A stretch of 34,873 nt of DNA from Candidatus Iainarchaeum sp. (GTDB taxonomy: Archaea > Iainarchaeota > Iainarchaeia > Iainarchaeales > JAZDDZ01). A program made the position numbers and the translations under genes. The stretch is from contig JAZDDZ010000027.1 in assembly GCA_043809245.1 (NCBI GenBank), forward strand, positions 1 through 34,873. The letters are read 5' to 3'. Under the pieces are notes generated by a model, which saw only the letters and a list, made by a program, of their open reading frames with translations, was not told the origin of the DNA and did no database searches. Below, in pieces: positions 3,052-34,673 of this stretch (positions are counted from its first letter, which is position 1; each line of letters begins with the position of its first letter).

Positions 3052-4323
3052 ATGTTTGGTGAATTTAGCATGGCTACAATCCAAGAAAGGCTTGTTGAAT
3101 TCAATTCGTGGTGGAAGGAAACATTTACATTAGAATTCAGGCCTAGAAAGGTTTACGGCGAAATGCGCAAGTTTCATAAACAGCCACAAATAGTCGCATT
3201 AACTGGTTTAAGGCGTGTCGGCAAGTCCACTTTACTCAAAAAGATTGTACAAGACGAAATTGCTGCAGGAAGAGACCCAAAAGCAATAATGTATTTTTCT
3301 TTTGACGAATTCAAGGACACTGAACCAAGCGAAATACTCAAAGCATATAATGAAATCACTGGAAAAGATGCTTCAAAAGAAAAAACTATTTTATTGTTTG
3401 ATGAAGTACAAAAGGTAACTGATTGGGAGAATAAAATCAAGACAATTTATGACCTTTACAAAGGAAAAGCGAAAATTTACATTTCGGGCTCTGAATCCTT
3501 GTTTGTAAAAACAAAGGCAAAGGAAACGCTCGCAGGAAGAATATTTTACTTCAAGGTTGAAACACTGTCTTTTATAGAATACCTTGACTTCAAACAAAAA
3601 AAGTTTGAACCAACCGCGCTTTACCAGAAAGAATTGTTCAAAGAATTCAAGGAGTTTATTCAATCACAGGGTTTCCCGGAGCTCGTTAATGTAACTGACC
3701 GGGAGATAATCCAAAAATACATTCAAGAAGGCATTGTTGAGAAAATAGTTTACAGGGATATTCCAACAATTTACGCTATCAAAGAAACCAGTGTTTTGGA
3801 ATCATTGCTCAAGCTTTTAATGGAAGAACCGGGTCAAATTATTGACATGCAAACCTTGGCTTCTCAATTTAAGACCACGCGCCAAACAATTTCCAATTAT
3901 TTTTCATTCCTTGAACAAGCATTTCTAATCAGAAAATTGTACAACTATTCCCCAAACAAAAGAAAAGTTGAAAGAAAACTCAAAAAATACTACTCCGCTA
4001 TACTATCGCCCTCGCTCACATTCAAAGAAGACACAATTTCACAATCAAAAGTCTTGGAATGCGTAGTAGCCAATAATCTCAATGCGGAGTTTTTTTGGCG
4101 AGACCAGTACAAGAACGAAGTGGACATAATCCTTACAGAGCCGGCACTAATTCCAATAGAAGTAAAACTTTCTGAAACAAAATCAAAAAGCTTGGAACTA
4201 TTCATGCAAAAATTCAAGGCAAAAAAAGGTTATATCATAACACAAAACCAAGAAATAAAAGAAAAAGGCAAAGTGGAAGTAATGCCCGCTTTCAAGTACT
4301 TCTTGGTCCGTCAGACAAAGTGA
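3052..4323 (+). CDS. AAA+ ATPase (AAA_14 + DUF4143)
   Basis: GLRRVGKST, LFDEVQ, SGS, ETLAGR, C-terminal EVD...IPIEVK; alternative start 3070. Confidence 0.9.
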   Translation: MFGEFSMATIQERLVEFNSWWKETFTLEFRPRKVYGEMRKFHKQPQIVALTGLRRVGKSTLLKKIVQDEIAAGRDPKAIMYFSFDEFKDTEPSEILKAYNEITGKDASKEKTILLFDEVQKVTDWENKIKTIYDLYKGKAKIYISGSESLFVKTKAKETLAGRIFYFKVETLSFIEYLDFKQKKFEPTALYQKELFKEFKEFIQSQGFPELVNVTDREIIQKYIQEGIVEKIVYRDIPTIYAIKETSVLESLLKLLMEEPGQIIDMQTLASQFKTTRQTISNYFSFLEQAFLIRKLYNYSPNKRKVERKLKKYYSAILSPSLTFKEDTISQSKVLECVVANNLNAEFFWRDQYKNEVDIILTEPALIPIEVKLSETKSKSLELFMQKFKAKKGYIITQNQEIKEKGKVEVMPAFKYFLVRQTK

Positions 4324-7191: not shown

Positions 7192-7227
7192 TTTAAAAAG
7201 AGATAGCAGCACCATAGTATCTATGGT
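7192..7227 (+). promoter_or_regulatory. Integrase promoter with palindromic operator over the start codon
   Basis: TTTAAAAA at 7192-7199; ACCATAG-tat-CTATGGT at 7211-7227 contains ATG 7223. Confidence 0.65.
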
Positions 7228-8515
7228 AACGAAAGACGAATACAACCTGAACCACACGCTCAACAGGCTCAATAATTCTGGCATGCTGCCTTACAACAAA
7301 AGCAAGGCACTCGAATTCTATAACGAAAAGGTTGCCCAGGGCATCAGAAAGACAAGCTACACCTATGTTCTGCGCATTCTCATTGAATTAGGCGAGCACT
7401 TCAAGGACAAAAAGTTCGAAGACATTCCAAAGAGCGAAATGGTTTCCTTCTTCAACAACTTGAAGCCAAAAGACAAGGTTTTGAAAACAAGATGCGGGCC
7501 TGTTGTAACAATCCCAATCGAATCCTACAGCGAAGGCACTTTATGGCAATACAAGGCAGCTGTCAAAATGTTTTACAAATGGCTCTTTGGAAAAGAGAAT
7601 GACGAAACCCCGTCGGACGCAGTCCGCTGGATAAAGAAAGCAGCTAATGGCAACGGAAACGGCTATGATAAATTCAGGAAAGAAATCCTTACAGCAGAAG
7701 AAATGCTCAAAATATTGAACGCCGCAAAGAACGCCCGCAACAAAGCCATTATTGCAATCTTGTGGGAGTACGGCCTGCGAGCTTCTGAATTATTGAACAT
7801 GAAAAAACCCGATTTGAAAATTGCAGAGAATTACATTGAGTTTGAAGTTAATGGCAAGACTGGAAAAAGGCAAGTCATTCTGGTTGAAAGCAAGCCGTTC
7901 CTTGAAGCCTGGCTCGCAGAACTCGAAGAAAAGAAATCCCAAATCCCCAAGCAGCTGCAGGATTACATCTGGCTTGCGTTCTCCTCAAGAGGCTACCGCA
8001 AAAAAGCAATTGGAACACAACTCATTTCCAGGGATGCCCTGAACGTGAAACTTAAATGGATTGCAAAAGCAGCTGGCATTGATAAGCGGGTTTGGACTCA
8101 TGGCTTTCGGCACAGCTCCGCAACAAAAGATGCGGTAAAAGGATACAATGAAGCAAAACTCAGGGCAAAATACGGCTGGAGCAACAAAAGCAACATGCCT
8201 TCTGTTTACGTTCACTTTGCAAACCAAAATTTGAAGAAAGAGATTTTGATTGAGAAGGGCCTTTGGAAACCTGACAAAAAAGAGCAGGAACCGCTCTCAA
8301 CGCAAACAGTTATTTGCCCTTTCTGCTCTGTTCAGAACATGAAAGAAAACGACTATTGTAGCAAGTGCGGAAAGCCCCTCAAAATAGAGCAGCTGAAAGC
8401 AATGGAAAAGAAATCCGAGCAGCTGAACCTGCTGCAAGAAATAATAGCGCAAGAGCTTGAAAAGAAAGGCGTTGACCTGGAACAAATGGCAAAGATACTG
8501 GCGGGAAAAGGCTGA
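7223..8515 (+). CDS. int: Tyrosine recombinase/integrase with C-terminal zinc ribbon
   Basis: GLRASEL (R), GKTG (K), HGFRH (HxxR), YGWS (W), SVYVH (Y); CPFC...CSKC. Confidence 0.93.
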   Translation: MVTKDEYNLNHTLNRLNNSGMLPYNKSKALEFYNEKVAQGIRKTSYTYVLRILIELGEHFKDKKFEDIPKSEMVSFFNNLKPKDKVLKTRCGPVVTIPIESYSEGTLWQYKAAVKMFYKWLFGKENDETPSDAVRWIKKAANGNGNGYDKFRKEILTAEEMLKILNAAKNARNKAIIAILWEYGLRASELLNMKKPDLKIAENYIEFEVNGKTGKRQVILVESKPFLEAWLAELEEKKSQIPKQLQDYIWLAFSSRGYRKKAIGTQLISRDALNVKLKWIAKAAGIDKRVWTHGFRHSSATKDAVKGYNEAKLRAKYGWSNKSNMPSVYVHFANQNLKKEILIEKGLWKPDKKEQEPLSTQTVICPFCSVQNMKENDYCSKCGKPLKIEQLKAMEKKSEQLNLLQEIIAQELEKKGVDLEQMAKILAGKG

Positions 8516-8713: not shown

Positions 8714-9976
8714 ATGATTTCAAAGAGTATTTTGAGGACAGTTATTGCAGACCAACTGAAAGAGATGGAATCATTAAAGGATTCTGTGCCAAGAACTGTT
8801 TTTCCCACTGCCGTTTCTTATAGCGGAGCTTCTGCTTTCGTTGTCAAGGGAGTGAGGAGATGCGGCAAGAGCACCTTGCTGAAGCAGCTGATTAAGGCAA
8901 AATTTGAAAACGATTTTTTTTACTTTAACTTTGATGATGAAAGAATTGAAGGATTCAAGTCTGAAGACTTTCAGCCGCTAATGGAAACACTGATTGAGGC
9001 TTTTGGAGAAAAAAAGAACGTTTTCTTTGATGAAATCCAGAATATTAAAGGCTGGGAATTGTTTGTCAACAGGATACTAAGGCAGGGTTACAAAGTTTTC
9101 ATTACAGGTTCTAATGCAAACCTGTTAAGCAAGGAACTCGGAACACACTTGACAGGAAGGCACGTGGATTTGGAGCTTTATCCTTTTTCTTTCGCTGAAT
9201 TCTTGAAAGCAAAGAAGATAGAAATCCCAAAAAAAGGAATTTATTCCACTGAACAAAAAGCATTGCTTTCAAAGGAATTCAAGGAATACTTTTTAAAAGG
9301 CGGAATGCCGGAGGTTGTTGTTTTCTCAAACGAAGCAGTCCTGACAGCAATACTCACAGACATAATCCGAAAAGACATTTCCGAAAGATATGACATTAGA
9401 AAGCCAAGCGAACTCAAAACAGTGTTAAAATTCTTAATAGCCAATTCTGCAAACCCCATAACTTACAGGTCAATAAAAAACAATTTTGACATTCAAAGTG
9501 CCAATACCATCCAAAAATACATTGAATATGCTGAAGAAACATACCTTGTCTTCACTGTCCGAAAGCTCGAAAAGAAAATAAAACGTTTCGACAAAAACCC
9601 CAAAAAAATTTACTGCATTGACAACGGCATAATAATAAAAAACACGCCAAGCATTACAGAAAAAAAAGGCGCCCTATTAGAAAACATGGTTGCAGTTCAC
9701 TTGAAAAGGCTTGGAAAAGAATTCTATTACTTCAAAACAAGAAACAGCGAAGCCGACTTTGTGGTTCCAACAGAAAAACTGGCCATTCAAGTATGTTATG
9801 AACTCGACAACAAAAACAAAGAACGCGAAACAAAAGGGCTCATTGAAGCAATGCACGAAACCAAAGCAACCAGCGGCCTAATACTGACACTTGAACAAGA
9901 ACAAGAAACAACCATCCAAAACAAAAAAAGAATCATAAAACCAGCCTGGCAATGGTTATTGGAAAAACAACCCTGA
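8714..9976 (+). CDS. AAA+ ATPase (AAA_14 + DUF4143)
   Basis: GVRRCGKST, FFDEIQ, TGSN, LTGR, GGMPE, KIYCIDNG, EADFV. Confidence 0.92.
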   Translation: MISKSILRTVIADQLKEMESLKDSVPRTVFPTAVSYSGASAFVVKGVRRCGKSTLLKQLIKAKFENDFFYFNFDDERIEGFKSEDFQPLMETLIEAFGEKKNVFFDEIQNIKGWELFVNRILRQGYKVFITGSNANLLSKELGTHLTGRHVDLELYPFSFAEFLKAKKIEIPKKGIYSTEQKALLSKEFKEYFLKGGMPEVVVFSNEAVLTAILTDIIRKDISERYDIRKPSELKTVLKFLIANSANPITYRSIKNNFDIQSANTIQKYIEYAEETYLVFTVRKLEKKIKRFDKNPKKIYCIDNGIIIKNTPSITEKKGALLENMVAVHLKRLGKEFYYFKTRNSEADFVVPTEKLAIQVCYELDNKNKERETKGLIEAMHETKATSGLILTLEQEQETTIQNKKRIIKPAWQWLLEKQP

Positions 9977-20837: not shown

Positions 20838-21914
20838 GTGATTTTTATGCCTTCGAATGTTTCCGTTGAATACAGCAGGGCGCAGCAGAAGTACGCCGAG
20901 GCGCGCACAAATGCCGAAAAGCTTGCGGCATTGCAGGGAATGTGGAGCGTTGCCCCAAGCCATAAGGGCGCTGAAAACCTCCGCGCGGAAATAACGCGGA
21001 AAATGGCTGCTTTGCGCAAGCTGATTGAGAAGGAAAAGGCGCAGTCAAAGAAGAAGGGCAGCGCGCCAAGCATGCACGTGAAAAAAGAGGGCTGCGCGCA
21101 AGTGGTGCTTGTGGGGCTTCCCAATTCAGGCAAGAGCTCGCTTTTAAACAGCCTGACTGGAATCAATGCCGCTGTTGCGCCTTATCCTTTCACAACAATA
21201 AAGCCCGAGATTGGAATGATGAATTTTAAGGGCGCTTTGGTGCAGTTAGTAGAGGTGCCCGCAATAATTGAGGGAAGCGCGGGGGGAAGAGCGCAGGGAA
21301 CACAGCTTTTCTCTGTTATAAGGAATGCGGATGCAATTATTCTTGTTGTAAGGAACCCTGATGAGGAAAAAATCCTGTTGAATGAGCTTGGCAAGGCAGG
21401 CATTAAGGCAAACAAAAAAAGGCCCGCGATTCAGGTCAGGCCAGCGGAATTCAAGGGCATAACCATTGCGGGGAAAAGGTTCCTCAAAATGCCTGAAGCG
21501 GAATTCATTGAATTCCTGAAAGGATTGGGAATTCACAGCGCTTCGGTGCTATTGAACGAGCCAACTACTACTGAAAAGGTATTGGAGACGCTTGACGACA
21601 GCCTTGTTTACAGGAAAGCCTTGACAGTTAACCCCTTCATTGAAAAGGACATTCCATTGCTGAAGGAAAAGATTTTTGCATTGCTTGAAAGGATTCTTGT
21701 TTACACAAAAAAGCCGGGAAAGGACGCGGACATGAACGAGCCCCTTGCATTAAAAAAAGGCTCAACCGTTGAAAGCGTTGCAAAGCTGCTTCACAAGGAT
21801 TTTGCGCAGAATTTAAGGTACGTTAAGTTGTGGGGCAGCGGAAAGTTTCCCGCGCAAAGGGTTGCAAAGAATTACAGGCTGAAGGGCGGGGACATAATAG
21901 AGATTTATTCGTGA
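20838..21914 (+). CDS. DRG/OBG family GTPase with TGS domain
   Basis: HKGAE, GLPNSGKSS, YPFTT, C-terminal TGS (VYTK...LHKDF...LWG...GDIIEI). Confidence 0.9.
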   Translation: MIFMPSNVSVEYSRAQQKYAEARTNAEKLAALQGMWSVAPSHKGAENLRAEITRKMAALRKLIEKEKAQSKKKGSAPSMHVKKEGCAQVVLVGLPNSGKSSLLNSLTGINAAVAPYPFTTIKPEIGMMNFKGALVQLVEVPAIIEGSAGGRAQGTQLFSVIRNADAIILVVRNPDEEKILLNELGKAGIKANKKRPAIQVRPAEFKGITIAGKRFLKMPEAEFIEFLKGLGIHSASVLLNEPTTTEKVLETLDDSLVYRKALTVNPFIEKDIPLLKEKIFALLERILVYTKKPGKDADMNEPLALKKGSTVESVAKLLHKDFAQNLRYVKLWGSGKFPAQRVAKNYRLKGGDIIEIYS

Positions 21915-26729: not shown

Positions 26730-28607
26730 ATGAAAAAAAAGATTTTTGTTTTGTGCTGTTTAATAGCCCTGCTATTTTTGATTGGCTGTATCCAAAGCCC
26801 TGAACAAAATTTAAATAATGTAACGGGTGCGGCAACTTATGTTGATGCTTTTTCCTCTCGCGATTATTTCCTGTTTAACGGTGATTTTGATCTTTCCCTG
26901 CCGAATAACTCGCTGTTGAACGGCAGTTTTGAGGAGGGCGGCTGGAGATATCCTGTTTTATGGTTTTTATGGAAGGCAACGGATGTTTCAAAGCCAAAAT
27001 ATTGGTTTGACTTTCAGCAAGTAAATTCATCCGCAAGATTGGTAGGTTACAGTTCGCTAATAGGCGTATCTGAAGGAAGAAAAGCTTTTGCAGTAACTCT
27101 TGGAAGCACAACAAAGGATTATTGGCTTTACCAGCCAGTGAAGCTCCAACCTGGAAAAACATACAAGCTAAGTTCGTACATAAGTGCCCAAAGGATATCA
27201 TCAAATCAGGATTATGGCTGCGAGGTATACCTATACAACCCAAACTCAGCAGAACTATCTGCAATAAGCACAATCGCGGCGAGAGGCACGACAAGCATGC
27301 AACAATACGCGAAAGAGTTTGCGATTCCGGCGGGAATCACGGTTGCAGCAGTGATGGTTGGGGGAAAAAGCCCAAGCGGAACATGCTATTTTGACGAAGT
27401 AAATCTTTTGCCAACAGAATTTAATGGTGATGGAATCTACACGGTACACGGCGGAGAAACCATTGTTTCTGACGAGGGTTTTAAGATAAAAATAAACAAT
27501 ATTGACAGAACTTCTGACCCTCAAGGTTATCCTTTGCTAAATTATTCAGTATTATCTGCTGATGGTTTTTTGGTTAAGGAGGGTTATGCTCAGTTTACAG
27601 AAGGTTTTACACAAACCGATTTGGTATTCCCAAAATCCTACCTTGAAGGAATAAAACCAGGCGCTTTTAATTTAACTGAAATTGATGACACTCACGCAGA
27701 CTTTATGGAAATCAAAGTTGATTCATGCCCAATCTTAGCCTCTATAAAAGGCATTGGTGAAAAGAAAATTTTATTCGTTCCCGCATATACCTATGCGGCA
27801 AGGGACGCTATCAACGACCACGCGAAACTGGCACTGAATGTTTACAGCCCTGCTTTTTCTGACGTGATTAATTATGTTAAATTCAAGCAAAACCAATTAA
27901 TTGAAAGGGAATTGTTAAGCATATCATTTACTGTAACCGATCCAATAGTGGTGCCGTCAGAAGCTGACTACTATCAAAAAAGTGACAGTATAAAAAAAAT
28001 TTTGAATTATATAAGAGAACAAACTAATTTTGAACCGAGTAATTTTGATTTGCTGGTTTTTCAGTTGTATATTGGCCCTGATGAACAACCCTTGGCTGAA
28101 ACCCCCTATTCTGAAGGAATAATCGCACACAATAAAGTACACACTCCTGAAGCTGCATTTGATTGGGAAAACAGGGATGTATTTTACAGCAACACAAAAC
28201 CCCTTTATACAAAAGCAATGCTTCATGAAATTCTTCATGGCTTTGGGATGAGTGACGAGATAGCTTATAACTCAACTTATTATCTTGGCTCAGTTTTTTA
28301 CATAGGAAGCTATTTTGATGGAACACAGGAACTAATAGCACCGGGCCCTGGCAATACAATGTATAGGAATGTAACAGAAATTCAAAACGAAGCCGAAAGG
28401 CGCCTTGGAAATAAGTTTCTTGTTGGCGAATTTCAGCAAATCAACGAACTTATGGCGCAAGAGCTTGGCTGGAAAGACATCAATGACAACAATGTGATTG
28501 ATGTATATGAAGCTTGTGAGCAAAATTGCATAATTGAAGAAAATGCAAGAGTTGATAGCCAACTTGCCAATATAACGCCATATGATTTCTGCAGTCTGAA
28601 GAATTAG
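26730..28607 (+). CDS. Lipoprotein with carbohydrate-binding-like domain and zincin metalloprotease motif
   Basis: Lipobox LLFLIGC; NGSFE...LQPGKTYKLS...YFDEV (CBM-like); HEILHGFG. Confidence 0.7.
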   Translation: MKKKIFVLCCLIALLFLIGCIQSPEQNLNNVTGAATYVDAFSSRDYFLFNGDFDLSLPNNSLLNGSFEEGGWRYPVLWFLWKATDVSKPKYWFDFQQVNSSARLVGYSSLIGVSEGRKAFAVTLGSTTKDYWLYQPVKLQPGKTYKLSSYISAQRISSNQDYGCEVYLYNPNSAELSAISTIAARGTTSMQQYAKEFAIPAGITVAAVMVGGKSPSGTCYFDEVNLLPTEFNGDGIYTVHGGETIVSDEGFKIKINNIDRTSDPQGYPLLNYSVLSADGFLVKEGYAQFTEGFTQTDLVFPKSYLEGIKPGAFNLTEIDDTHADFMEIKVDSCPILASIKGIGEKKILFVPAYTYAARDAINDHAKLALNVYSPAFSDVINYVKFKQNQLIERELLSISFTVTDPIVVPSEADYYQKSDSIKKILNYIREQTNFEPSNFDLLVFQLYIGPDEQPLAETPYSEGIIAHNKVHTPEAAFDWENRDVFYSNTKPLYTKAMLHEILHGFGMSDEIAYNSTYYLGSVFYIGSYFDGTQELIAPGPGNTMYRNVTEIQNEAERRLGNKFLVGEFQQINELMAQELGWKDINDNNVIDVYEACEQNCIIEENARVDSQLANITPYDFCSLKN

Positions 28608-30070
28608 TAAGCCTTCGCAAAGTACGCTTTCTCTTTCGCGGTTTTTCCGCATTTAACGCATTTTCCCTGGAAGTTTTTCGGCTGTCCAAAGGGAATGCAC
28701 CTGCTTGTCGCAGTGGTTTTCTCCTTGATTTCGTTCTCGCATTCATCTGTGTGGCAGAAAGGTGCAAGGGCAATTTTCTTGCCTTCAATCGCTTTCACGA
28801 ATTCCTGCCAGCTTTTCGGCTCGACAATGTTGCCATTCAAAAACTTTTTCGCCTTTGCAAACAGGTCTTTCTGCATTTCCTCAAGCATTTTTCCTGACTC
28901 TTTTTTAACCGCTTCAATTTTCACGATTTTTTTCGCGCCGTTGTCCCTTCTCACAAGCACTGCCTGCTTTTTCTCCAAATCCTTTGGCCCTAACTCCACA
29001 CGGAGCGGCACGCCTTTCAATTCCCATTCATTGAATTTCCATCCCGCGCTGTATCCCTCGCGGTCGTCAATGAATGCATTGAATTCCGCAAGCTCTTTTT
29101 CAATTTCTTTCGCTTTCTTCAAGACTTTTTGCTTGCTGTCATCAAACAAAATAGGCACTATAACAATTTTTTCCCTTGCAAGTTTCGGAGGCAAAACAAG
29201 CCCCTTGTCGTCTCCGTGCAGCATTACAACCGCGCCAATCAGCCTTGTGCTGAAACCCCAGCTGCTCTGCCATGCAAGCTGTTCTTTGCCGCCCTTATCC
29301 AAGAACTTCACGCCAAAGCTTTTCGCAAAGTTCTGCCCCAAATTATGCGATGTGCCCATCTGCAGTGCCTTTCCGTCAGGCATGAGCGCTTCAAGTGTCG
29401 TGGTGTAAAGCGCTCCCGCAAATTTTTCTTTTTCGGTTTTTTTCCCTGAAAGAACAGGAACCGCTAGAACGCCTTCCACAAGCTTCCTGTATTCATCCAA
29501 AAACAAAAGCGTTTCCTTGTCACATTCTTCCGCGGTTTCGTAAACGCAGTGGCCTTCCTGCCATAAAAACTCGCGCGTTCGCAAAAAAAGCTTTGTCTGC
29601 TTTACTTCCCACCTCAGGACATTGCACCACTGGTTAATTCGCAAAGGCAAATCCCTCCAGCTCCTAATCCATTTCGCGTAAGAATCATACATTATGGTTT
29701 CGCTTGTAGGCCTAATCGCCAATCTTTCTTCTTGCTCCCCTTCTTCCCCTTCCTCTTTTTTCTTTTCAATCCACGCCAGCTCCGGCGCAAATCCTTTCGC
29801 GTGCTCTGCCTCTTTTTTGAAAAAGCTCTCAGGAATCAAAAGCGGGAAATAAGCGTTCCTCACCCCGCGAGCGAAAATCTGAGCGTTGAATTCTTCTTGA
29901 ATTTTTTCCCAAAGGGCATATCCTCTGGGCCTTATAACCATGAATCCCCTCACTGGCGAATAATCCGCGAGTTCCGCCTTCAAAACGACTTGATTGAACC
30001 ATTCAACGAAGTCGCCTTCTTTTTTGGCGGTCAATCCCGCCTGCTGGACTTTAGCTTCTTTTGCAGACAT
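28604..30070 (-). CDS. proS: Proline--tRNA ligase, archaeal/eukaryotic type
   Basis: RPTSET, FLRTREFLWQEGH, GTSHNLGQNF, C-terminal CxxC and terminal Tyr (AKAY); ATG 30070 preferred to 30106. Confidence 0.97.
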   Translation of the reverse strand: MSAKEAKVQQAGLTAKKEGDFVEWFNQVVLKAELADYSPVRGFMVIRPRGYALWEKIQEEFNAQIFARGVRNAYFPLLIPESFFKKEAEHAKGFAPELAWIEKKKEEGEEGEQEERLAIRPTSETIMYDSYAKWIRSWRDLPLRINQWCNVLRWEVKQTKLFLRTREFLWQEGHCVYETAEECDKETLLFLDEYRKLVEGVLAVPVLSGKKTEKEKFAGALYTTTLEALMPDGKALQMGTSHNLGQNFAKSFGVKFLDKGGKEQLAWQSSWGFSTRLIGAVVMLHGDDKGLVLPPKLAREKIVIVPILFDDSKQKVLKKAKEIEKELAEFNAFIDDREGYSAGWKFNEWELKGVPLRVELGPKDLEKKQAVLVRRDNGAKKIVKIEAVKKESGKMLEEMQKDLFAKAKKFLNGNIVEPKSWQEFVKAIEGKKIALAPFCHTDECENEIKEKTTATSRCIPFGQPKNFQGKCVKCGKTAKEKAYFAKAY

Positions 30071-30098
30071 TTTTAACACGCATTCATTAATTCTAGCT

Positions 30099-31229
30099 TC
30101 AACCAATAATATAAATGTTCTCTGTCTTGATAACCGGCTGCAGCTTTTGCTTTAGCACCTTTTCCCCTTCCCCTGAATTCTTGCCGATAATGCCCTCAAG
30201 GTCTTTGCTTGAATAAGTGCTGGTGCCGCGGGCAAAAACCACGCTGCCGCATTTCACTTCAACCAATTCATTTGCATCAAAGGTTCCCTTTACTTTTTTC
30301 ACGCCTATTGCAAGGAGGCTTTTTCCCGAAAGCAACGCATTCTTTGCCCCCTCGTCCACTTCCAGTGTTCCGGCTGCCCTTGAAAAGGAAAGCCACCTTT
30401 CCTTTTCGCTTAAGCCTTTTCCCGGAGAAAAAAACGTGCCAATCTCCTTTCCTGCCGCAGCATCAAGCAAAGCGTTTTTTTTCCTGCCATTCAAAATCAC
30501 CACAGCGCATCCGGCTGTTGCCGCGATTTTTGCCGCGTCCACTTTTGACTTCATTCCGCCCAATCCCCCGCAGCTCGCGTTTCCAGCCATTGCCTCAATG
30601 TCTTTCCCGATTTCTTTCACTTCCCTCACGAGAACGGCTTTACTGTCCTTTTTCGGATTGCAGTTGAACAATCCCTCAACATCGGACAACATTATGAGGG
30701 CGTTCGCGTTGAGCTTTGACGCAACCATTGCCGAAAGCCTGTCATTGTCGCCAAAGCTTTTATCAATTTCCCTTGTCGAAATGGGGTCGTTTTCGTTTAT
30801 TACGGGCACTACTCCGAACTCAAGCAGCGAATTAATGCTGTTCCTCAGGTTAAGGTATGTTTCCCTGTCCGAAAAAGAATCAAATGTAAGCAAAACCTGT
30901 GCAACGCTTATCCTGCGTTTCCTGAAAGCGCTTGCATAATGGCTCATCAATATGCTTTGCCCTACCGCTGCCGCTGCCTGCCTTAGCACGATGTCCCTGG
31001 GGCTTTCCTTTAAGCCGAGTTCTTTTTTCCCGCAGCCAATTGCGCCGGAGGTTACAATCACTATTTCTTTCCCTTCCTTTCTTAATTTTGCAGCCTGTCC
31101 AGCGATTCCTTTAATGAATGCGCCGTCAACTTCCCCTTTTCCGTTGGTTATGGTGTTCGTGCCAATCTTCACCACAATGCGCTTTGCTTTTCCGAAAAAA
31201 GCCTTTCTTTCAGCCATAAACTCCACCAT
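30099..31229 (-). CDS. proB: Glutamate 5-kinase with PUA domain
   Basis: VVKIGT, TSGAI, QAAAAVGQ, INEND, FGDND, GGMKSK. Confidence 0.96.
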   Translation of the reverse strand: MVEFMAERKAFFGKAKRIVVKIGTNTITNGKGEVDGAFIKGIAGQAAKLRKEGKEIVIVTSGAIGCGKKELGLKESPRDIVLRQAAAAVGQSILMSHYASAFRKRRISVAQVLLTFDSFSDRETYLNLRNSINSLLEFGVVPVINENDPISTREIDKSFGDNDRLSAMVASKLNANALIMLSDVEGLFNCNPKKDSKAVLVREVKEIGKDIEAMAGNASCGGLGGMKSKVDAAKIAATAGCAVVILNGRKKNALLDAAAGKEIGTFFSPGKGLSEKERWLSFSRAAGTLEVDEGAKNALLSGKSLLAIGVKKVKGTFDANELVEVKCGSVVFARGTSTYSSKDLEGIIGKNSGEGEKVLKQKLQPVIKTENIYIIG

Positions 31230-32483
31230 TCACTCCCTTATTTGCCCGCTTCCCTCAACAACATACTTGTAGCTTGTAAGCTCCCTTAATCCCATCGGCC
31301 CGCGGGCATGCATTTTCTGCGTGCTCACGCCTATCTCAGAGCCAAAGCCAAACTGCGCTCCATCAGTGAAACGCGTTGAAGCATTCGCGTAAACGCATGC
31401 TGCGTCCACTTCATTCAAAAAACGCGAAATGTTTTCCCTGCCGCCCGAAACAATCGCATCCGAATGCTTGGTGTTGAATTTGTTTATGTGCGCAATTGCC
31501 TCATCAACAGAACCAACAACTTTTATCGCAATAACCAAGTCAAGGTATTCCTTGGGCCAGTCGGCATCTGTTGCAGGAACAATGCCCCTAACAATCTTTA
31601 CAGCCATTTCATCGCCCCTTACCTCGACCCCGTGCTTCCTGAGCTCAGCAACCATTGAAGGCAAAAACTTTTCCGCGATTCTCTCATGCACCAACAGCTT
31701 TTCCACCGCGTTGCACACGCCGGGCCTCTGCACTTTCGCGTTCACCACGATTTTCTTTGCTTTCTCCAAATCAGCGCTTTCGTCAACAAACACATGGCAG
31801 TTTCCCTCGCCTGTCTCAATCACGGGAACAGATGAATTTTCCACAACCATTTTAATCAGGGAACCGCTGCCGCGCGGGATAATCAAGTCAACAACCCCGT
31901 GCAATTTCAGCAGTGCGTTAACAGACTCCCTTTCAATGAAGGGAATGAATGAAATTGCTTCCTTGGGCAAGCCTGCCTTTTCAATTGCGCCTGAAATCAC
32001 TTCAACTATTGCCTTGTTTGAATTGATTGCATCACTGCCTCCCTTCAACACAACCGCGTTTCCCGCCTTCAGGCATAAAACGCTTGCATCAACCGTGACA
32101 TTCGGCCTGCTTTCATAAATCAAGGCGATTACACCCAAGGGCACGCGCACTTTTTTTATCCGCAAGCCATTTTCAAGTGTCCATTCCACAATTGCCTCGC
32201 CAACAGGGTCTTTTAGCGATGCGACTTTCCTTGTCTCTTCAGCCATTGCCTTGATTCTTTTTTCATTCAGCAAAAGCCTGTCCGCCAATGCATCGCTTAA
32301 GCCTTTTTTTCTAGCGGCTATAACGTCTTTTTCGTTTGCCGCGAGGATTTTTTCCACGTTTTTTTCAAGTGCTTCCGCTATGGCATTCAACGCATTGTTT
32401 TTCTTTTCTGTTGATGCGCCTGCAACAACCGCTGAAGCCATGCGCGCTTTAACGGCAATTTCCCTTACCTTTTCTCCAATCAT
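31230..32483 (-). CDS. proA: Gamma-glutamyl phosphate reductase
   Basis: IYESRPNV, IPRG, GNCH, CNAVE, NASTRFTDG, STQKMHARGP. Confidence 0.97.
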   Translation of the reverse strand: MIGEKVREIAVKARMASAVVAGASTEKKNNALNAIAEALEKNVEKILAANEKDVIAARKKGLSDALADRLLLNEKRIKAMAEETRKVASLKDPVGEAIVEWTLENGLRIKKVRVPLGVIALIYESRPNVTVDASVLCLKAGNAVVLKGGSDAINSNKAIVEVISGAIEKAGLPKEAISFIPFIERESVNALLKLHGVVDLIIPRGSGSLIKMVVENSSVPVIETGEGNCHVFVDESADLEKAKKIVVNAKVQRPGVCNAVEKLLVHERIAEKFLPSMVAELRKHGVEVRGDEMAVKIVRGIVPATDADWPKEYLDLVIAIKVVGSVDEAIAHINKFNTKHSDAIVSGGRENISRFLNEVDAACVYANASTRFTDGAQFGFGSEIGVSTQKMHARGPMGLRELTSYKYVVEGSGQIRE

Positions 32484-33289
32484 TCGTTTTCCCTCCGCAG
32501 TTCTTCGGCTCTCTTTGCAGCAGCGGAAATCGCTTCCGCGAAAGCCTTCTCAGCGCCCAAATCATGCAGTTTTCCTAAGCCAGCGAAAGTTGTTCCCCCT
32601 GGAGATGCAACCATTTCAACCAGCTCCGTGGGTTTCATCTTTTTTTCAATCAAAAGCCTTGCAGTGCCCAATGCGGTTTGCTCCGCAAGAAGCCGTGCAT
32701 CGCTTTGGCTTAAGCCCAATTGCCGTGCTTTTTCCGCCATTCCATTCAATGCAATCGCAATGAATGCAGGCCCTGAACCGCTTAAAGCCGTGACAATGTC
32801 CAGCAATTTTTCTTCCTTGACTTCAATTGCCTTTCCAACCGCTTCAAGCAATTCCCTGACTTCTTTTGCGTCCTTTGCAGTCGCTTTTTTTCCAAGGCAA
32901 AAGGCGCTCATTCCCTCTCCCACAAGCGCCGGCGTGTTGGGCATCACGCGGACAATTCTTGCCTTTGAAATTTTGCGTTCAAGGAATTCAAGGGAAATGC
33001 CGGCTGCAATTGAGACAACCAATTGCCTTGCGGTAAAAGCGCCAGCCAATTCCTCCAGAACTTCTTTCATGTTCTGCGGCTTCACGCATAAAAAAACTGT
33101 TTCGCTTTTCTGCACAACTTCCGCGTTGTCCTTTGCCGCATTTACCTTATACTTTCCCTTAAGCAAATTCAGCCTTTCGCTGCTTTTGTCGCTGACCCAA
33201 ACTTCTTTTGCGGTGGCTGCTTTTTTCGCGAGAAAGCCGCCTAAAAGCGCTTCAGCCATTTTTCCAGAACCAATGAAACCAATTTTCAT
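32480..33289 (-). CDS. proC: Pyrroline-5-carboxylate reductase
   Basis: IGSGKMA, VKPQ, RVMPNTP, SGSGPAF, SPGGTT. Confidence 0.97.
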   Translation of the reverse strand: MKIGFIGSGKMAEALLGGFLAKKAATAKEVWVSDKSSERLNLLKGKYKVNAAKDNAEVVQKSETVFLCVKPQNMKEVLEELAGAFTARQLVVSIAAGISLEFLERKISKARIVRVMPNTPALVGEGMSAFCLGKKATAKDAKEVRELLEAVGKAIEVKEEKLLDIVTALSGSGPAFIAIALNGMAEKARQLGLSQSDARLLAEQTALGTARLLIEKKMKPTELVEMVASPGGTTFAGLGKLHDLGAEKAFAEAISAAAKRAEELRRENE

Positions 33290-33306
33290 TCCATTTCACC
33301 TAACCA

Positions 33307-33395
33307 CTTTTCCCAAACCCAAAGGTTTGGGCTCTTTTCTTTCTTTTGGGTAACATACACTTTTCTTTCTTTTTGTAAAAGAAAGAAAAGGGCTG
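33307..33395 (-). repeat. Two-hairpin tRNA 3' trailer, copy 1 (also proC leader)
   Basis: 14-bp U/A hairpin at 33360-33390 and CCCAAACC/GGTTTGGG hairpin at 33312-33331; homologous to 33963-34038. Confidence 0.75.
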
Positions 33396-33494
33396 TGGGG
33401 GAGCCGAGATTTGAACTCGGGTTACTACCACTTTGGAACTCTTTTTCCGAGATTCCCCAAGGTAGAGTACTGGACCAGGCTATACTACTCCCCC
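33396..33494 (-). tRNA. tRNA-Pro(GGG) with 24-nt intron at 37/38 (33431-33454)
   Basis: Acceptor GGGGGAG/CTCCCCC, anticodon stem CTACC/GGTAG, T arm CCGAG-TTCAAAT-CTCGG; BHB central helix TTGG/CCAA with 3-nt bulges. Confidence 0.95.
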
Positions 33495-33814
33495 TTTTTT
33501 CCATTTGTTCTTTTTTTTCCTCCTTTATTTTTTTTCTTTAGTTCATTTTCCCGTTCAAGTAAGTTTACAATGTTGGCTGCAACATTTTTAGGAGGCAGAT
33601 GCAGATAGCTGCTTTTCGGCCAAATGCCCGCTTGCCAGAAAAGGTCCGCGTTTAAGGCAATTCTTTCAGGCGGGACTCCTCTATTTAAATGGCGATTTAC
33701 CGAAGGATTACGGTATAGGCCCAGCGCCAAAAAATTATTATGAATCTCTGTGGCAGTCAGGGTTGCCGGGTTTCTTTTTGCTTTTATCTTTATTCGGCTT
33801 ATTAACTGCTTCAT
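33485..33814 (-). CDS. Hypothetical basic protein between the two tRNA-Pro genes
   Basis: 109-aa ORF; its last 10 nt are the first 10 nt of tRNA-Pro(GGG). Confidence 0.45.
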   Translation of the reverse strand: MKQLISRIKIKAKRNPATLTATEIHNNFLALGLYRNPSVNRHLNRGVPPERIALNADLFWQAGIWPKSSYLHLPPKNVAANIVNLLERENELKKKNKGGKKRTNGKKGE

Positions 33815-33844
33815 TTAAACAACCCCTGGAAAAGCCCTGCCTGA

Positions 33845-33884
33845 CCCAAAGCCGGAATACTGGACCAGGCTATACTACCACCCC
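33845..33884 (-). tRNA. 5' half (positions 1-37) of split tRNA-Pro(UGG)
   Basis: GGGGTGG TA GTAT AGCCTGGTCCA GTAT T CCGGC TT TGG G, followed by trailer T-CAGGCAGGGCTTT. Confidence 0.93.
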
Positions 33885-33962
33885 TCGCCGCCACTGTCGG
33901 CGGGCCAGAGCACGGGTTCACTTCGTTCACCCATGCGTGCTCGCTTCGCTCGCATTTAATGG

Positions 33963-34038
33963 CTTTTCCCAAGCCGTAGGCTTGGGTAGTTTTTCTTTGG
34001 GCAACATGCACTTTCTTTTTTCTAAAAAGAAAGGGCTG
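33963..34038 (-). repeat. Two-hairpin tRNA 3' trailer, copy 2
   Basis: 10-bp U/A hairpin at 34011-34033 and CCCAAGCC/GGCTTGGG hairpin at 33968-33986. Confidence 0.75.
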
Positions 34039-34040
34039 TT

Positions 34041-34075
34041 TGGGGTGGCCCGGATTTGAACCGGGGTCGCCGGCT
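34041..34075 (-). tRNA. 3' half (positions 38-73) of split tRNA-Pro(UGG), upstream of the 5' half
   Basis: A GCCGG CGAC CCCGG TTCAAAT CCGGG CCACCCC A, preceded by leader AAAGCCCTGCCTG-CAGA-AC. Confidence 0.93.
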
Positions 34076-34316
34076 GTTCTGCAGGCAGGGCTTTCAAGCT
34101 TGAATGAATTCCCGATTGAAATGCTGTTCTTTTGGCTAAAAAAATCAGTTAAAGCCTTTTTTTGGCACTGGAAGTCGATCACTTCTTTGCATTTCAATCA
34201 ATAGATATTTCTTCAAAAAAGGGTTTAAAAAGCCATGCATTTTTTGCAAAGGCAATGCCTCGGTTTAGGGAAAACAAAAAAAAGAAACAGGGGCGAAAAA
34301 CGCTTTTTTCGCCCGT

Positions 34317-34673
34317 TTATTCTTTTGCCATTGACCAGATGGATTTGAGTGCTATTATCAGCGCTGCCGGTGCGACAAAGAACTGTATTGCAAGGACTAT
34401 TCCCGCCAAAGCAGTGCCCAAGCCGTTCAGAACCGTGTCAAGCGATGAAAGGTTTGCCGCGCCAACCAGCATCAATGCTATTGCCGCAATCAGGAATGCA
34501 GTGGTTTCTTTGTCTTTGATGTTTGCAAAGCCCACAATTAATCCCAGGATGACCAGGATTAATCCAATAATTCCTGCGTAAGCTGCAACACTGCTGGAGA
34601 ATATTCCTATAATGATTGCAAGTATTACCCCTGCAATGAAAGCGTATGCGCCTATTTTCTGCATTTCAGCCAT
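34317..34673 (-). CDS. Small multi-pass membrane protein
   Basis: Four hydrophobic helices; LGLIVGFANIKDKETTAFLIA; RBS GGAGGT. Confidence 0.85.
   Translation of the reverse strand: MAEMQKIGAYAFIAGVILAIIIGIFSSSVAAYAGIIGLILVILGLIVGFANIKDKETTAFLIAAIALMLVGAANLSSLDTVLNGLGTALAGIVLAIQFFVAPAALIIALKSIWSMAKE

Follow-up and report, generated by a model that had tools for sequence, protein, structure and literature searches.

The 34,873-bp contig JAZDDZ010000027.1 of Candidatus Iainarchaeum sp. (contig C27 of the genome assembly, here termed G000) carries on its minus strand the two halves of a proline transfer RNA (tRNA) with the anticodon UGG, arranged in reversed order with the 3' half upstream of the 5' half. 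The whole contig is referred to as the window, and coordinates given without a contig name are positions in it. Judged by their sequences and predicted folds, the tRNA-Pro(UGG) halves are real and very probably form a functional rearranged gene. A preliminary description, based on the letters of the DNA, had proposed such a gene; the present analysis adds its apparent origin from an intron between tRNA positions 37 and 38 at a syntenic locus, the modular build of the spacer between the halves, and a compensatory U5:A68 pair.

Structure of the tRNA-Pro(UGG) locus

Read along the minus strand, the locus consists of a leader, the hexanucleotide CAGAAC, the 3' half, a spacer, the 5' half, a single U and a trailer. 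The 3' half (34075-34041, 35 nucleotides (nt), tRNA positions 38-73) extends from A38 to the discriminator A73 and comprises the 3' strand of the anticodon stem, a 4-nt variable loop, the T arm and the 3' strand of the acceptor stem; the terminal CCA is not encoded. It is followed by the spacer (34040-33885, 156 nt) and the 5' half (33884-33845, 40 nt, positions 1-37), which extends from G1 to G37 with the 5' strand of the acceptor stem, a D arm with an 11-nt loop, the 5' strand of the anticodon stem and the sequence UU-UGG-G. The halves pair with each other in the acceptor stem (GGGGTGG/CCACCCC) and in the anticodon stem (CCGGC/GCCGG).

The leader (34094-34082) and the trailer (33843-33831) are exact reverse complements of each other. 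All 13 of their 13 base pairs are of the Watson-Crick type, and the resulting helix, the outer helix h' of a bulge-helix-bulge (BHB) motif, is paired in the minimum free energy folds. The last three T of the trailer form a run of four T together with T33830. In the central helix of the BHB, UUUG (33850-33847, U32-G35) pairs with CAGA (34081-34078), one G-U pair included. One bulge is GG^U (33846-33844), with U33844 as its third base; the other is AC^A (34077-34075), the first two bases of which complete the CAGAAC stretch (34081-34076). BHB motifs are cut after the second base of each bulge, and here the predicted cuts fall after G37 (before U33844) and before A38 (after C34076).

Two 3-nt bulges around a 4-bp helix constitute the hBHBh' geometry, which is also that of the intron in the neighbouring Pro(GGG) gene and of the Pro(UGG) introns in eight relatives. 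As in permuted tRNA genes, both parts are on one strand with the 3' part first, and, as in permuted and split tRNA genes alike, complementary leader and trailer sequences form a BHB at the joint. The coordinates and pairings previously assigned to the two halves, the spacer, the helix and the BHB all hold when read on the minus strand.

Spliced product and its uniqueness in the genome

Splicing of the halves in silico produced a 75-nt sequence with a canonical cloverleaf, which ARAGORN names tRNA-Pro(tgg), the identity that had been predicted for the joined halves. The product differs from the intact Pro(CGG) gene of the same genome (C42:42294-42368) by three changes, located at the first anticodon base, nt 5 and nt 68, and the identity to Pro(CGG) is 34 of 35 bases for the 3' half and 39 of 40 for the 5' half. 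The C5:G68 pair of Pro(CGG) is replaced by U5:A68 in Pro(UGG). This is a compensatory change of an acceptor pair whose two members are divided between the halves, and it is difficult to account for if these do not function together.

The G000 assembly (1.48 Mb, 55 contigs, 44% G+C) is 91.8% complete, and no intact tRNA-Pro(UGG), the search for which had been suggested as a check, was detected in it by any of four approaches. Pro(UGG) is absent among the 43 intron-aware ARAGORN calls on the 55 contigs, which include Pro(GGG) and Pro(CGG), and the Rfam tRNA model has 38 matches in the genome, without Pro(UGG) among them. Used as a query, the spliced sequence matched nothing in the assembly besides the two halves, Pro(CGG) and a portion of Pro(GGG), and there is no copy of the 20-mer that bridges the joint. 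Scans with half-tRNA profiles returned two orphan 5'-half matches, that of Pro(UGG) (E 3.8) and another at E 10 on contig C15, and the Pro(UGG) match is the only convincing orphan 5' half in the genome.

The halves themselves were reported neither by ARAGORN, run without or with introns, nor by the Rfam tRNA model even at E ≤ 5, as had been anticipated for standard tRNA scans. The most used proline codon of this organism is CCA (10.74 per 1000, in open reading frames (ORFs) of at least 250 codons). By standard tRNA finders, the genome appears to be without a tRNA for its commonest proline codon, and genes of this kind in DPANN archaea can be mistaken for genome incompleteness or codon reassignment.

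Significance of the predicted structure

A repeat search identified inverted arms of 25 nt with 80% complementarity (33831-33855 and 34070-34094), corresponding to the outer helix, the BHB and the anticodon stem. Genome-wide, 14 perfect inverted repeats of at least 13 bp have 100-400 nt between their arms. The leader/trailer pair is the most GC-rich of them and lies in exact register with the two boundaries of the tRNA halves. Cofolding of the two pieces yielded -62.9 kcal/mol versus -46.1 ± 3.9 kcal/mol for 200 shuffled controls (best shuffle -56.9), with formation of the acceptor stem, the anticodon stem and the 13-bp helix. When folded as a single chain of 276 nt, the locus showed a z-score of -5.47, and none of 200 shuffles folded equally well. 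Scanning the genome for a 5' acceptor strand plus D arm fitting the acceptor sequence CCACCCC revealed the proposed 5' half as the sole match.

Related sequences in sediment metagenomes

Related DNA is present among the contigs of two sediment-metagenome runs, X1 and X2. Only these two runs, both of DNA and of low share, were listed for the stretch, with no RNA run among them, a result that has no bearing on expression. A 151-nt X2 contig, which comes from another study, spans positions 34068-34218 with 11 differences (~93% identity). It joins upstream flank, leader, BHB and the beginning of a 3' half as in the window, and its 124 nt upstream contain no 5' half. Of the differences, nine were placed at 34099-34185, eight of these at 34099-34115. 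In X1, a 322-nt contig joins 33866-33845 directly to 34075-33978; here another organism has a Pro tRNA without intron or other interruption, followed by the same 3' module. Its 22-nt 5' part contains one differing letter, which leaves UGG and CGG indistinguishable. In another X2 contig, the 5' half runs directly into the beginning of a 3' half. These contigs indicate that both intact forms and the separated 3' half exist in nature.

Origin from an intron-containing gene

G000 is the sole member of its family among the genomes compared, exact-pattern scans of metagenome and genome contigs for closer relatives, with the leader/BHB/3'-half junction and with 3'-half cores, each returned no stretch, and every relative belongs only to the same order. 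Pro(UGG) genes were examined in ten of these relatives; two of them (G015, G019) have an intronless gene, and eight (G027, G036, G174, G053, G052, G115, G125 and G129) have a canonical intron of 18-92 nt at 37/38. ARAGORN names three of the eight intron-bearing genes Pro(tgg); in the other five it shifts the intron and calls Pro(ggg), Leu or Val. These five were read as Pro(UGG) from the sequence ...CUUUGGG followed by a BHB, as checked by eye.

In all eight intron-bearing relatives UUUG is one strand of the central helix. The G129 intron pairs it with CAGA, as here, and the G027 intron has the same AC^A bulge, so that the BHB described earlier as canonical shares its design with the introns of these relatives. 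The intron of G053 starts with U-CAGCCA and ends with UGGCUG-CAAA-AG^A, and in the window the trailer starts with U-CAGGCA and the leader ends with UGCCUG-CAGA-AC^A, the two pairs of ends being related by a compensatory C/G exchange within the helix. These matches imply that the leader and the trailer are the two ends of a former Pro(UGG) intron and, on this comparison, the gene is a rearranged descendant of a Pro(UGG) gene with a 37/38 intron.

The order of neighbouring genes points to the same locus. Pro(UGG) is followed by Pro(GGG) and proC in G015, by Pro(GGG) in G174 and G019, and by proC in G036. In the window, tRNA-Pro(GGG) (33396-33494, minus strand; identified by ARAGORN, by the Rfam tRNA model with 49.6 bits and by its sequence) lies ~350 nt downstream of the halves and has a canonical 24-nt intron (33454-33431) at 37/38, whose BHB (UUGG/CCAA, with bulges GG^A and AG^U) serves as an internal reference. 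The ancestral forms, intact or with a 37/38 intron, and the derived form share one locus within one order, and a 3' flank and a 5' leader can still be made out in the spacer. Permuted genes have been proposed to arise by duplication and loss or by reverse transcription of a permuted or circular RNA (PMC3978253; this and the other cited reports were available in part). The shared locus and the recognisable spacer make both the duplication-and-loss and the RNA-mediated models testable by sampling closer relatives.

Spacer modules and promoter-like signals

According to its matches elsewhere, the spacer combines two ordinary elements, a tRNA 3' flank module followed by a structured 5' leader. The 3' flank (34040-33962, minus strand), which consists of a module termed D and a second hairpin (33986-33968), is paralogous to the flank after Pro(GGG). 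Module D contains a T3CT5 run (34032-34024) inside a hairpin and then a conserved stretch. A T-rich hairpin module of ~45 nt (34040-33990, minus strand), which starts with CCCTTTCTTTTTAG and ends with GTTGCCCAAAGAAAAA, is 85-96% identical in many families of the order. Module D also follows Pro(GGG) in the window (33394-33340), Gln(UUG) on contig C28 and, in G083, Pro(CGG). It is likewise found inside Glu and Cys genes of relatives, and together with an inverted copy of itself it fills Asp(GUC) introns of 128-150 nt in G001, G032 and G049. It may act as a terminator or represent a mobile module or an RNA element. An exact 22-nt copy of the second spacer hairpin is located at C49:20738-20759. 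A search of Rfam over 33250-34350 at E ≤ 5 returned Pro(GGG) only, with no family for the spacer, module D or the 5' leader.

The second part of the spacer is a leader of three hairpins (33955-33885, minus strand), which ends directly at G1 of the 5' half and is homologous to the leaders of the intact Pro(CGG) and Cys(GCA) genes. Together with the 5' half it is 78% identical to C42:42222-42333. Comparison of sequences and folds by eye identified homologous leaders before Pro(CGG) and Cys(GCA) in G000 and before Pro(GGG) in G015. The copies of this ~70-nt leader, which terminates precisely at +1 of several tRNAs, are found in G000 at C42:42222-42293, C4:40030-40099 and C10:44722-44781, and at loci in G009 and G015. 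Its first hairpin has a covarying stem of 2-3 bp (GC/GC, AC/GU, GGC/GCC) between tandem GA/GA. We may guess that the leader acts as a K-loop-like protein site. In G009, near-identical leader starts are found between protein genes (by eye, probably ribosomal-protein genes), so that the leader is not specific to tRNAs, and a 23-mer consisting of ATTAAAT plus the leader start, as in the spacer, occurs twice in this genome.

Promoter-like signals were scored with a matrix built from 34 tRNA upstream regions of G000. Between module D and the three-hairpin leader lies the TATA-like box CATTAAAT (33961-33954, minus strand), a possible promoter of the 5' half. An overlapping matrix match at 33968 scores 7.4, compared with a 25th percentile of 7.7 for the tRNA promoters of the genome, and sites scoring at least 7.7 occur at 1.73 per kb per strand. 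The preliminary description, which held that this box could drive the 5' half, was right about its position, with a weak score for the promoter role. The best promoter-like box, TTAAACCCTT (34219-34228, minus strand), is located ~134 nt upstream of the leader helix and scores 10.5, the median of the set being 8.6. It is a candidate promoter for the 3' half or the whole unit, or it may belong to the end of the upstream gene. A weaker putative box, TTTAACTGAT (34144-34153, minus strand; score 5.3), resembles the box before the tRNA-His gene of the genome, and few of the listed differences of the ~93% identical X2 relative fall in its region.

Runs of T are common behind the tRNA genes of this organism; within 30 nt downstream, runs of at least five T follow 14 of 34 genes and runs of at least four T follow 27 of 34. 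Among the 13 introns of the genome, two contain at least five consecutive T. An argument that introns avoid such runs was dropped, since this count is close to the rough expectation from composition.

Proposed maturation of the tRNA

G000 encodes an RtcB ligase (C54:30094-31398, 590 bits), an archaeal RNase P RNA (86.4 bits), RNase Z and an archaeal CCA-adding enzyme. We propose that the 37/38 intron of the ancestral gene was opened and the exons reordered as 3' half, spacer and 5' half. The old intron ends would persist as leader and trailer, whose pairing over 13 bp would, together with the acceptor and anticodon stems, rebuild a canonical BHB. EndA would cut after G37 and before A38, RtcB would join the halves, RNase P and RNase Z would remove the structured 5' leader and the 3' trailer, respectively, and the CCA enzyme would complete the tRNA. 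The main supply would come from two transcripts, with the 3' half ending at the T3CT5 run and the 5' half starting in the spacer. These would be joined in trans, as for the adjacent tRNA-Asp halves of Aeropyrum pernix, and the read-through transcript would be a minor route.

That the rearranged gene is functional, by either of the two routes, we consider highly likely on the sequence evidence. The complete statement, namely a working, intron-derived tRNA-Pro(UGG) gene with reordered exons that is supplied mainly by two trans-joined transcripts, is offered tentatively, as a reading with nearly as much for it as against it. In support of two transcripts, the T3CT5 run lies 9 nt after the 3' half, within a module that follows intact tRNAs. 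The 5' half is preceded by a full leader, as in intact Pro(CGG) and Cys(GCA), with the TATA-like box just upstream, and the 13-bp helix is about twice as long as the ~6-bp helices of the cis-introns in relatives.

Several observations weigh against this reading. The promoter match in the spacer is weak (7.4, below 7.7), and the best box (10.5) lies upstream of the 3' half. D-type modules with T-runs are also found between the halves of other tRNA genes that must mature. In the Asp(GUC) gene of G000 (C14:1581-1757), a 103-nt intervening sequence contains an inverted copy of module D with runs of seven and six T, and T-runs are also present in the Asp genes of G001, G032 and G049. Since such modules lie inside maturing tRNA genes, the T-run may not stop the polymerase. 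The 151-nt X2 contig covers the 3'-half side only, and two of its 11 differences are unplaced (at most 31 nt from the ends) and may lie in the leader or BHB. Among the matches listed across the 196 genomes of the order, with three candidates scored per genome, no 3' half was followed by a 5' half. Local alignments for decayed remnants of the outer exons beside the leader and trailer did not exceed those of shuffled sequences (p = 0.33 and 0.08; controls 0.65 and 0.33), which leaves the duplication-and-loss model neither supported nor excluded.

A further point on the same side concerns the endonuclease. EndA was not found in G000; Pfam PF01974 had no match even at E ≤ 10, and tblastn with ORFs of at least 90 amino acids from the EndA loci of six relatives detected nothing in this assembly. 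A single-domain EndA of ~170-197 amino acids is encoded by 18 of 20 relatives. Because many tRNAs of G000 have introns, the gene is most likely located in the unassembled part and its absence an assembly gap; the missing part could hold an intact Pro(UGG) as well as EndA. The EndA literature (PMC5829648, available in part) leads us to expect that a strictly canonical BHB should be cut even by an α4 EndA of narrow specificity.

The two readings given in the preliminary description, a circularly permuted gene with a structured spacer or adjacent trans-spliced halves, are supported as a pair. A strictly permuted gene would produce one read-through transcript, from which EndA and RtcB would make a circle retaining the 156-nt spacer in the acceptor loop, to be excised by RNase P and RNase Z; such a route has been demonstrated in Cyanidioschyzon merolae. 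We take a strictly permuted gene to be a substantial possibility, if not the expected outcome. It would account for the adjacency of the halves on one strand in 3'-then-5' order and for the stable fold of the 276-nt chain (z = -5.47), in which the helix and both the acceptor and the anticodon stem form. The genome has RNase P RNA and RNase Z, and the relative strength of the two promoter-like boxes speaks in its favour, as do the T-run modules of the D type inside other tRNA genes and between Pro(GGG) and proC, where there is no obvious promoter. A run of T3CT5 after the 3' half, as after ordinary tRNA genes, is not what this route would predict, nor is a spacer that keeps a full 3' flank and a full 5' leader, and the 13-bp helix is within the range of trans-spliced halves. 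In the available parts of the reports on known permuted genes, the intervening sequences are shorter than 156 nt, with 1-74 nt (PMC3978253) or 1-85 nt (PMC3218864), and are described as free of promoter and terminator signals (PMC3978253, PMC3218864). Both routes give the same tRNA, and both may operate.

The halves might instead be dead remnants, with a working Pro(UGG) gene in the unassembled 8% of the genome. Consistent with this are the incompleteness of the assembly (91.8%, in 55 contigs), the many orphan tRNA 3' fragments in G000 (on C16, C31, C47 and C49) and the presence of very similar intact Pro tRNAs in other organisms of runs X1 and X2. Remnants, however, would not keep a perfect 13-bp helix, the BHB register, perfect stems and the compensatory U5:A68 pair. 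The halves occupy the syntenic Pro(UGG) position and include the only convincing orphan 5' half, the other orphans being short 3' ends only, which makes decay improbable. An assembly artefact is more improbable still. In a metagenome-type assembly, one could imagine a chimera formed via the 35-40-nt stretches in common with Pro(CGG) or the collapse of a tandem repeat, the halves being 34/35 and 39/40 identical to Pro(CGG) and the side with the 5' half and trailer having no independent contig cover. A chimera, however, cannot create an exactly complementary leader and trailer in BHB register. In the independent X2 contig of ~93% identity, upstream flank, leader and the first part of the 3' half are arranged likewise, and on both sides the locus passes into ordinary genes.

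Neighbouring genes and other unusual tRNA genes

Downstream of Pro(GGG), the minus strand of the window encodes proC (32480-33289; Pfam P5CR_dimer/F420_oxidored), a proA-like aldehyde dehydrogenase (31230-32483; Aldedh), a proB-like glutamate kinase (30099-31229; AA_kinase and PUA) and the prolyl-tRNA synthetase proS (28604-30106; ProRS-C_1/tRNA-synt_2b/HGTP_anticodon). With the UGG halves and Pro(GGG), these genes form a proline-themed cluster on one strand (28604-34094, minus), and the link between tRNA-Pro and proC recurs in relatives G015 and G036. Two small ORFs (33485-33814 and 34317-34673) match no Pfam family, and the first of them was not taken as a gene. At ~25 kb from the tRNA locus, the plus strand encodes a phage-integrase-family protein (7223-8515) and two AAA_14/DUF4143 ATPases (3052-4323 and 8714-9976).

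Other tRNA genes of G000 are also unusual. Gly(GCC), Gly(UCC) and Gln(CUG) have introns in the D-loop (C10:42033-42203, C10:48040-48155 and C47:85540-85651, respectively); the two Gly introns share their ends, and ARAGORN mislabels or misses these three genes. A tRNA at C49:1829-2206 (minus strand) has an intron of ~306 nt containing an ORF with a CxxC...HH...CxxCH pattern, which by eye resembles HNH endonucleases. In Ser(UGA) (C54:58680-58817), 52 nt with a run of eight T separate the halves. The T-run sequences of this gene and of Asp(GUC) are either introns that are read through or the gaps between adjacent halves of split genes in normal order. A Ser(UGA)-Leu(GAG) pair is found on two contigs (C31:3579-5047 and C32:1009-2562), which may reflect a repeat or redundant assembly. 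A perfect 13-bp inverted repeat (C42:21567-21579 and 21761-21773) brackets tRNA-Ala(UGC) (C42:21622-21696) in the manner of a processing stem.

Orphan tRNA 3' ends, comprising the last ~25-45 nt, occur at C16:36561-36587 (minus strand), C31:3808-3834, C49:20791-20814 (minus strand) and C47:65079-65111. They derive from Arg(UCG), Ser(UGA), Ala-like and Glu-like tRNAs, and two of them are located ~150 nt after an intact gene behind a shared insert. The C49 orphan is followed by the 22-nt exact copy of the second hairpin of the Pro(UGG) spacer. These fragments resemble duplicated attachment sites or a small mobile insert, and they hint at a way of copying a 3' half.

A more far-reaching interpretation is that the locus catches the birth of a permuted or split tRNA gene, with spacer modules that are still unreduced. 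It would have been rearranged by the process that scatters tRNA 3' ends with their flank modules, and would mature by both the trans and the circular route. Among permuted-order tRNA genes it would be the first from DPANN archaea, the first in any archaeon with a 37/38 joint, the first to encode tRNA-Pro, and probably also the first from an archaeon that is not hyperthermophilic. Taken together, these claims are speculative and we regard the whole as rather unlikely.

Comparison with known split and permuted tRNA genes

The value of the locus lies in its lineage, joint position and isotype and, above all, in its visible ancestry. Split and permuted archaeal tRNAs have so far been tied to hyperthermophilic Crenarchaeota and Nanoarchaeum, and this case comes from a different DPANN lineage. 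Of the eight named homologues of the G000 RtcB, with 66-71% identity to it, seven are assigned to 'Candidatus Diapherotrites archaeon' or 'Candidatus Iainarchaeum sp.', which makes a Diapherotrites/Iainarchaeota DPANN host probable. For ProC, the five matches with a named organism have 47-49% identity and come from various phyla, and one ProC of 87% identity is encoded on a 1306-nt ENA contig. The mean G+C content of the tRNAs in this genome is 62%, which is lower than in hyperthermophiles but a weak indicator. All seven hosts of split tRNAs then known were hyperthermophiles (Chan 2011, PMC3218864), and atypical tRNAs are known in Crenarchaeota and Nanoarchaeota (tRNAscan-SE 2.0, PMC8450103). 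Undetected disrupted tRNA genes have been expected in DPANN archaea (in the paper on the EndA of M. kandleri, PMC5829648), and missing Trp and Val tRNAs, possibly split, were described in a 2026 Nanobdellota preprint; both sources note unexplained missing tRNAs in such lineages. In the parts of the literature available to us, no report was found of a permuted-order tRNA gene in DPANN archaea, of an archaeal permuted gene joined at 37/38, or of a split or permuted tRNA-Pro, which agrees with the earlier statement that no report was known for this lineage.

The only archaeal permuted genes reported in the available part of Chan 2011 (PMC3218864) are two from Thermofilum pendens, joined at 59/60 with intervening sequences of 7 nt and 1 nt, and in that of Soma 2014 (PMC3978253) the archaeal cases are of the T-loop type only, with permuted genes in general having 1-74 nt of intervening sequence without promoter or terminator signals. 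The T. pendens genes resemble the present one in their archaeal host, in the 3' part lying upstream on one strand, in the BHB at the joint and in being missed by ordinary scans. They differ in the T-loop joint, the very short intervening sequences, the single promoter inferred for them, the encoded CCA and the hyperthermophilic crenarchaeal host, whereas here a tRNA-Pro without encoded CCA is joined at 37/38 in a DPANN archaeon and has a 156-nt spacer with a T-run and a TATA-like box. The type II permuted genes of green algae and C. merolae share with it the 37/38 joint, the BHB formed by leader and trailer, the lack of CCA and the predicted excision by RNase P and tRNase Z (PMC3978253). These, however, are eukaryotic nuclear genes with intervening sequences of 7-74 nt described as free of signals, and their circular intermediates were shown experimentally (PMC3978253), whereas the spacer of the present gene contains putative signals of this kind.

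Among split genes, tRNA-Asp(GUC) of A. pernix is similar in having both halves on the same strand, slightly more than 100 nt apart, with a 37/38 joint (PMC3218864), and these adjacent halves give mainly two transcripts plus rare read-through (Chan 2011, PMC3218864). Its halves stand in the normal 5'-then-3' order and their read-through product is an ordinary intron, whereas read-through of the reversed order would generate a permuted precursor. Reversed adjacent halves are thereby a natural substrate in which read-through would lead to a circle and termination to trans-splicing, so that one locus allows both routes to be compared. The split tRNAs of Nanoarchaeum equitans, like the gene described here, belong to a DPANN host, have GC-rich leader and trailer sequences beside the BHB, include several 37/38 joints and have no intact copy. 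Their leader/trailer helices are 12-14 nt long. The N. equitans halves are scattered, with promoters of their own and leaderless transcripts in an organism that has no RNase P, whereas in this genome the halves are adjacent and an RNase P RNA is present.

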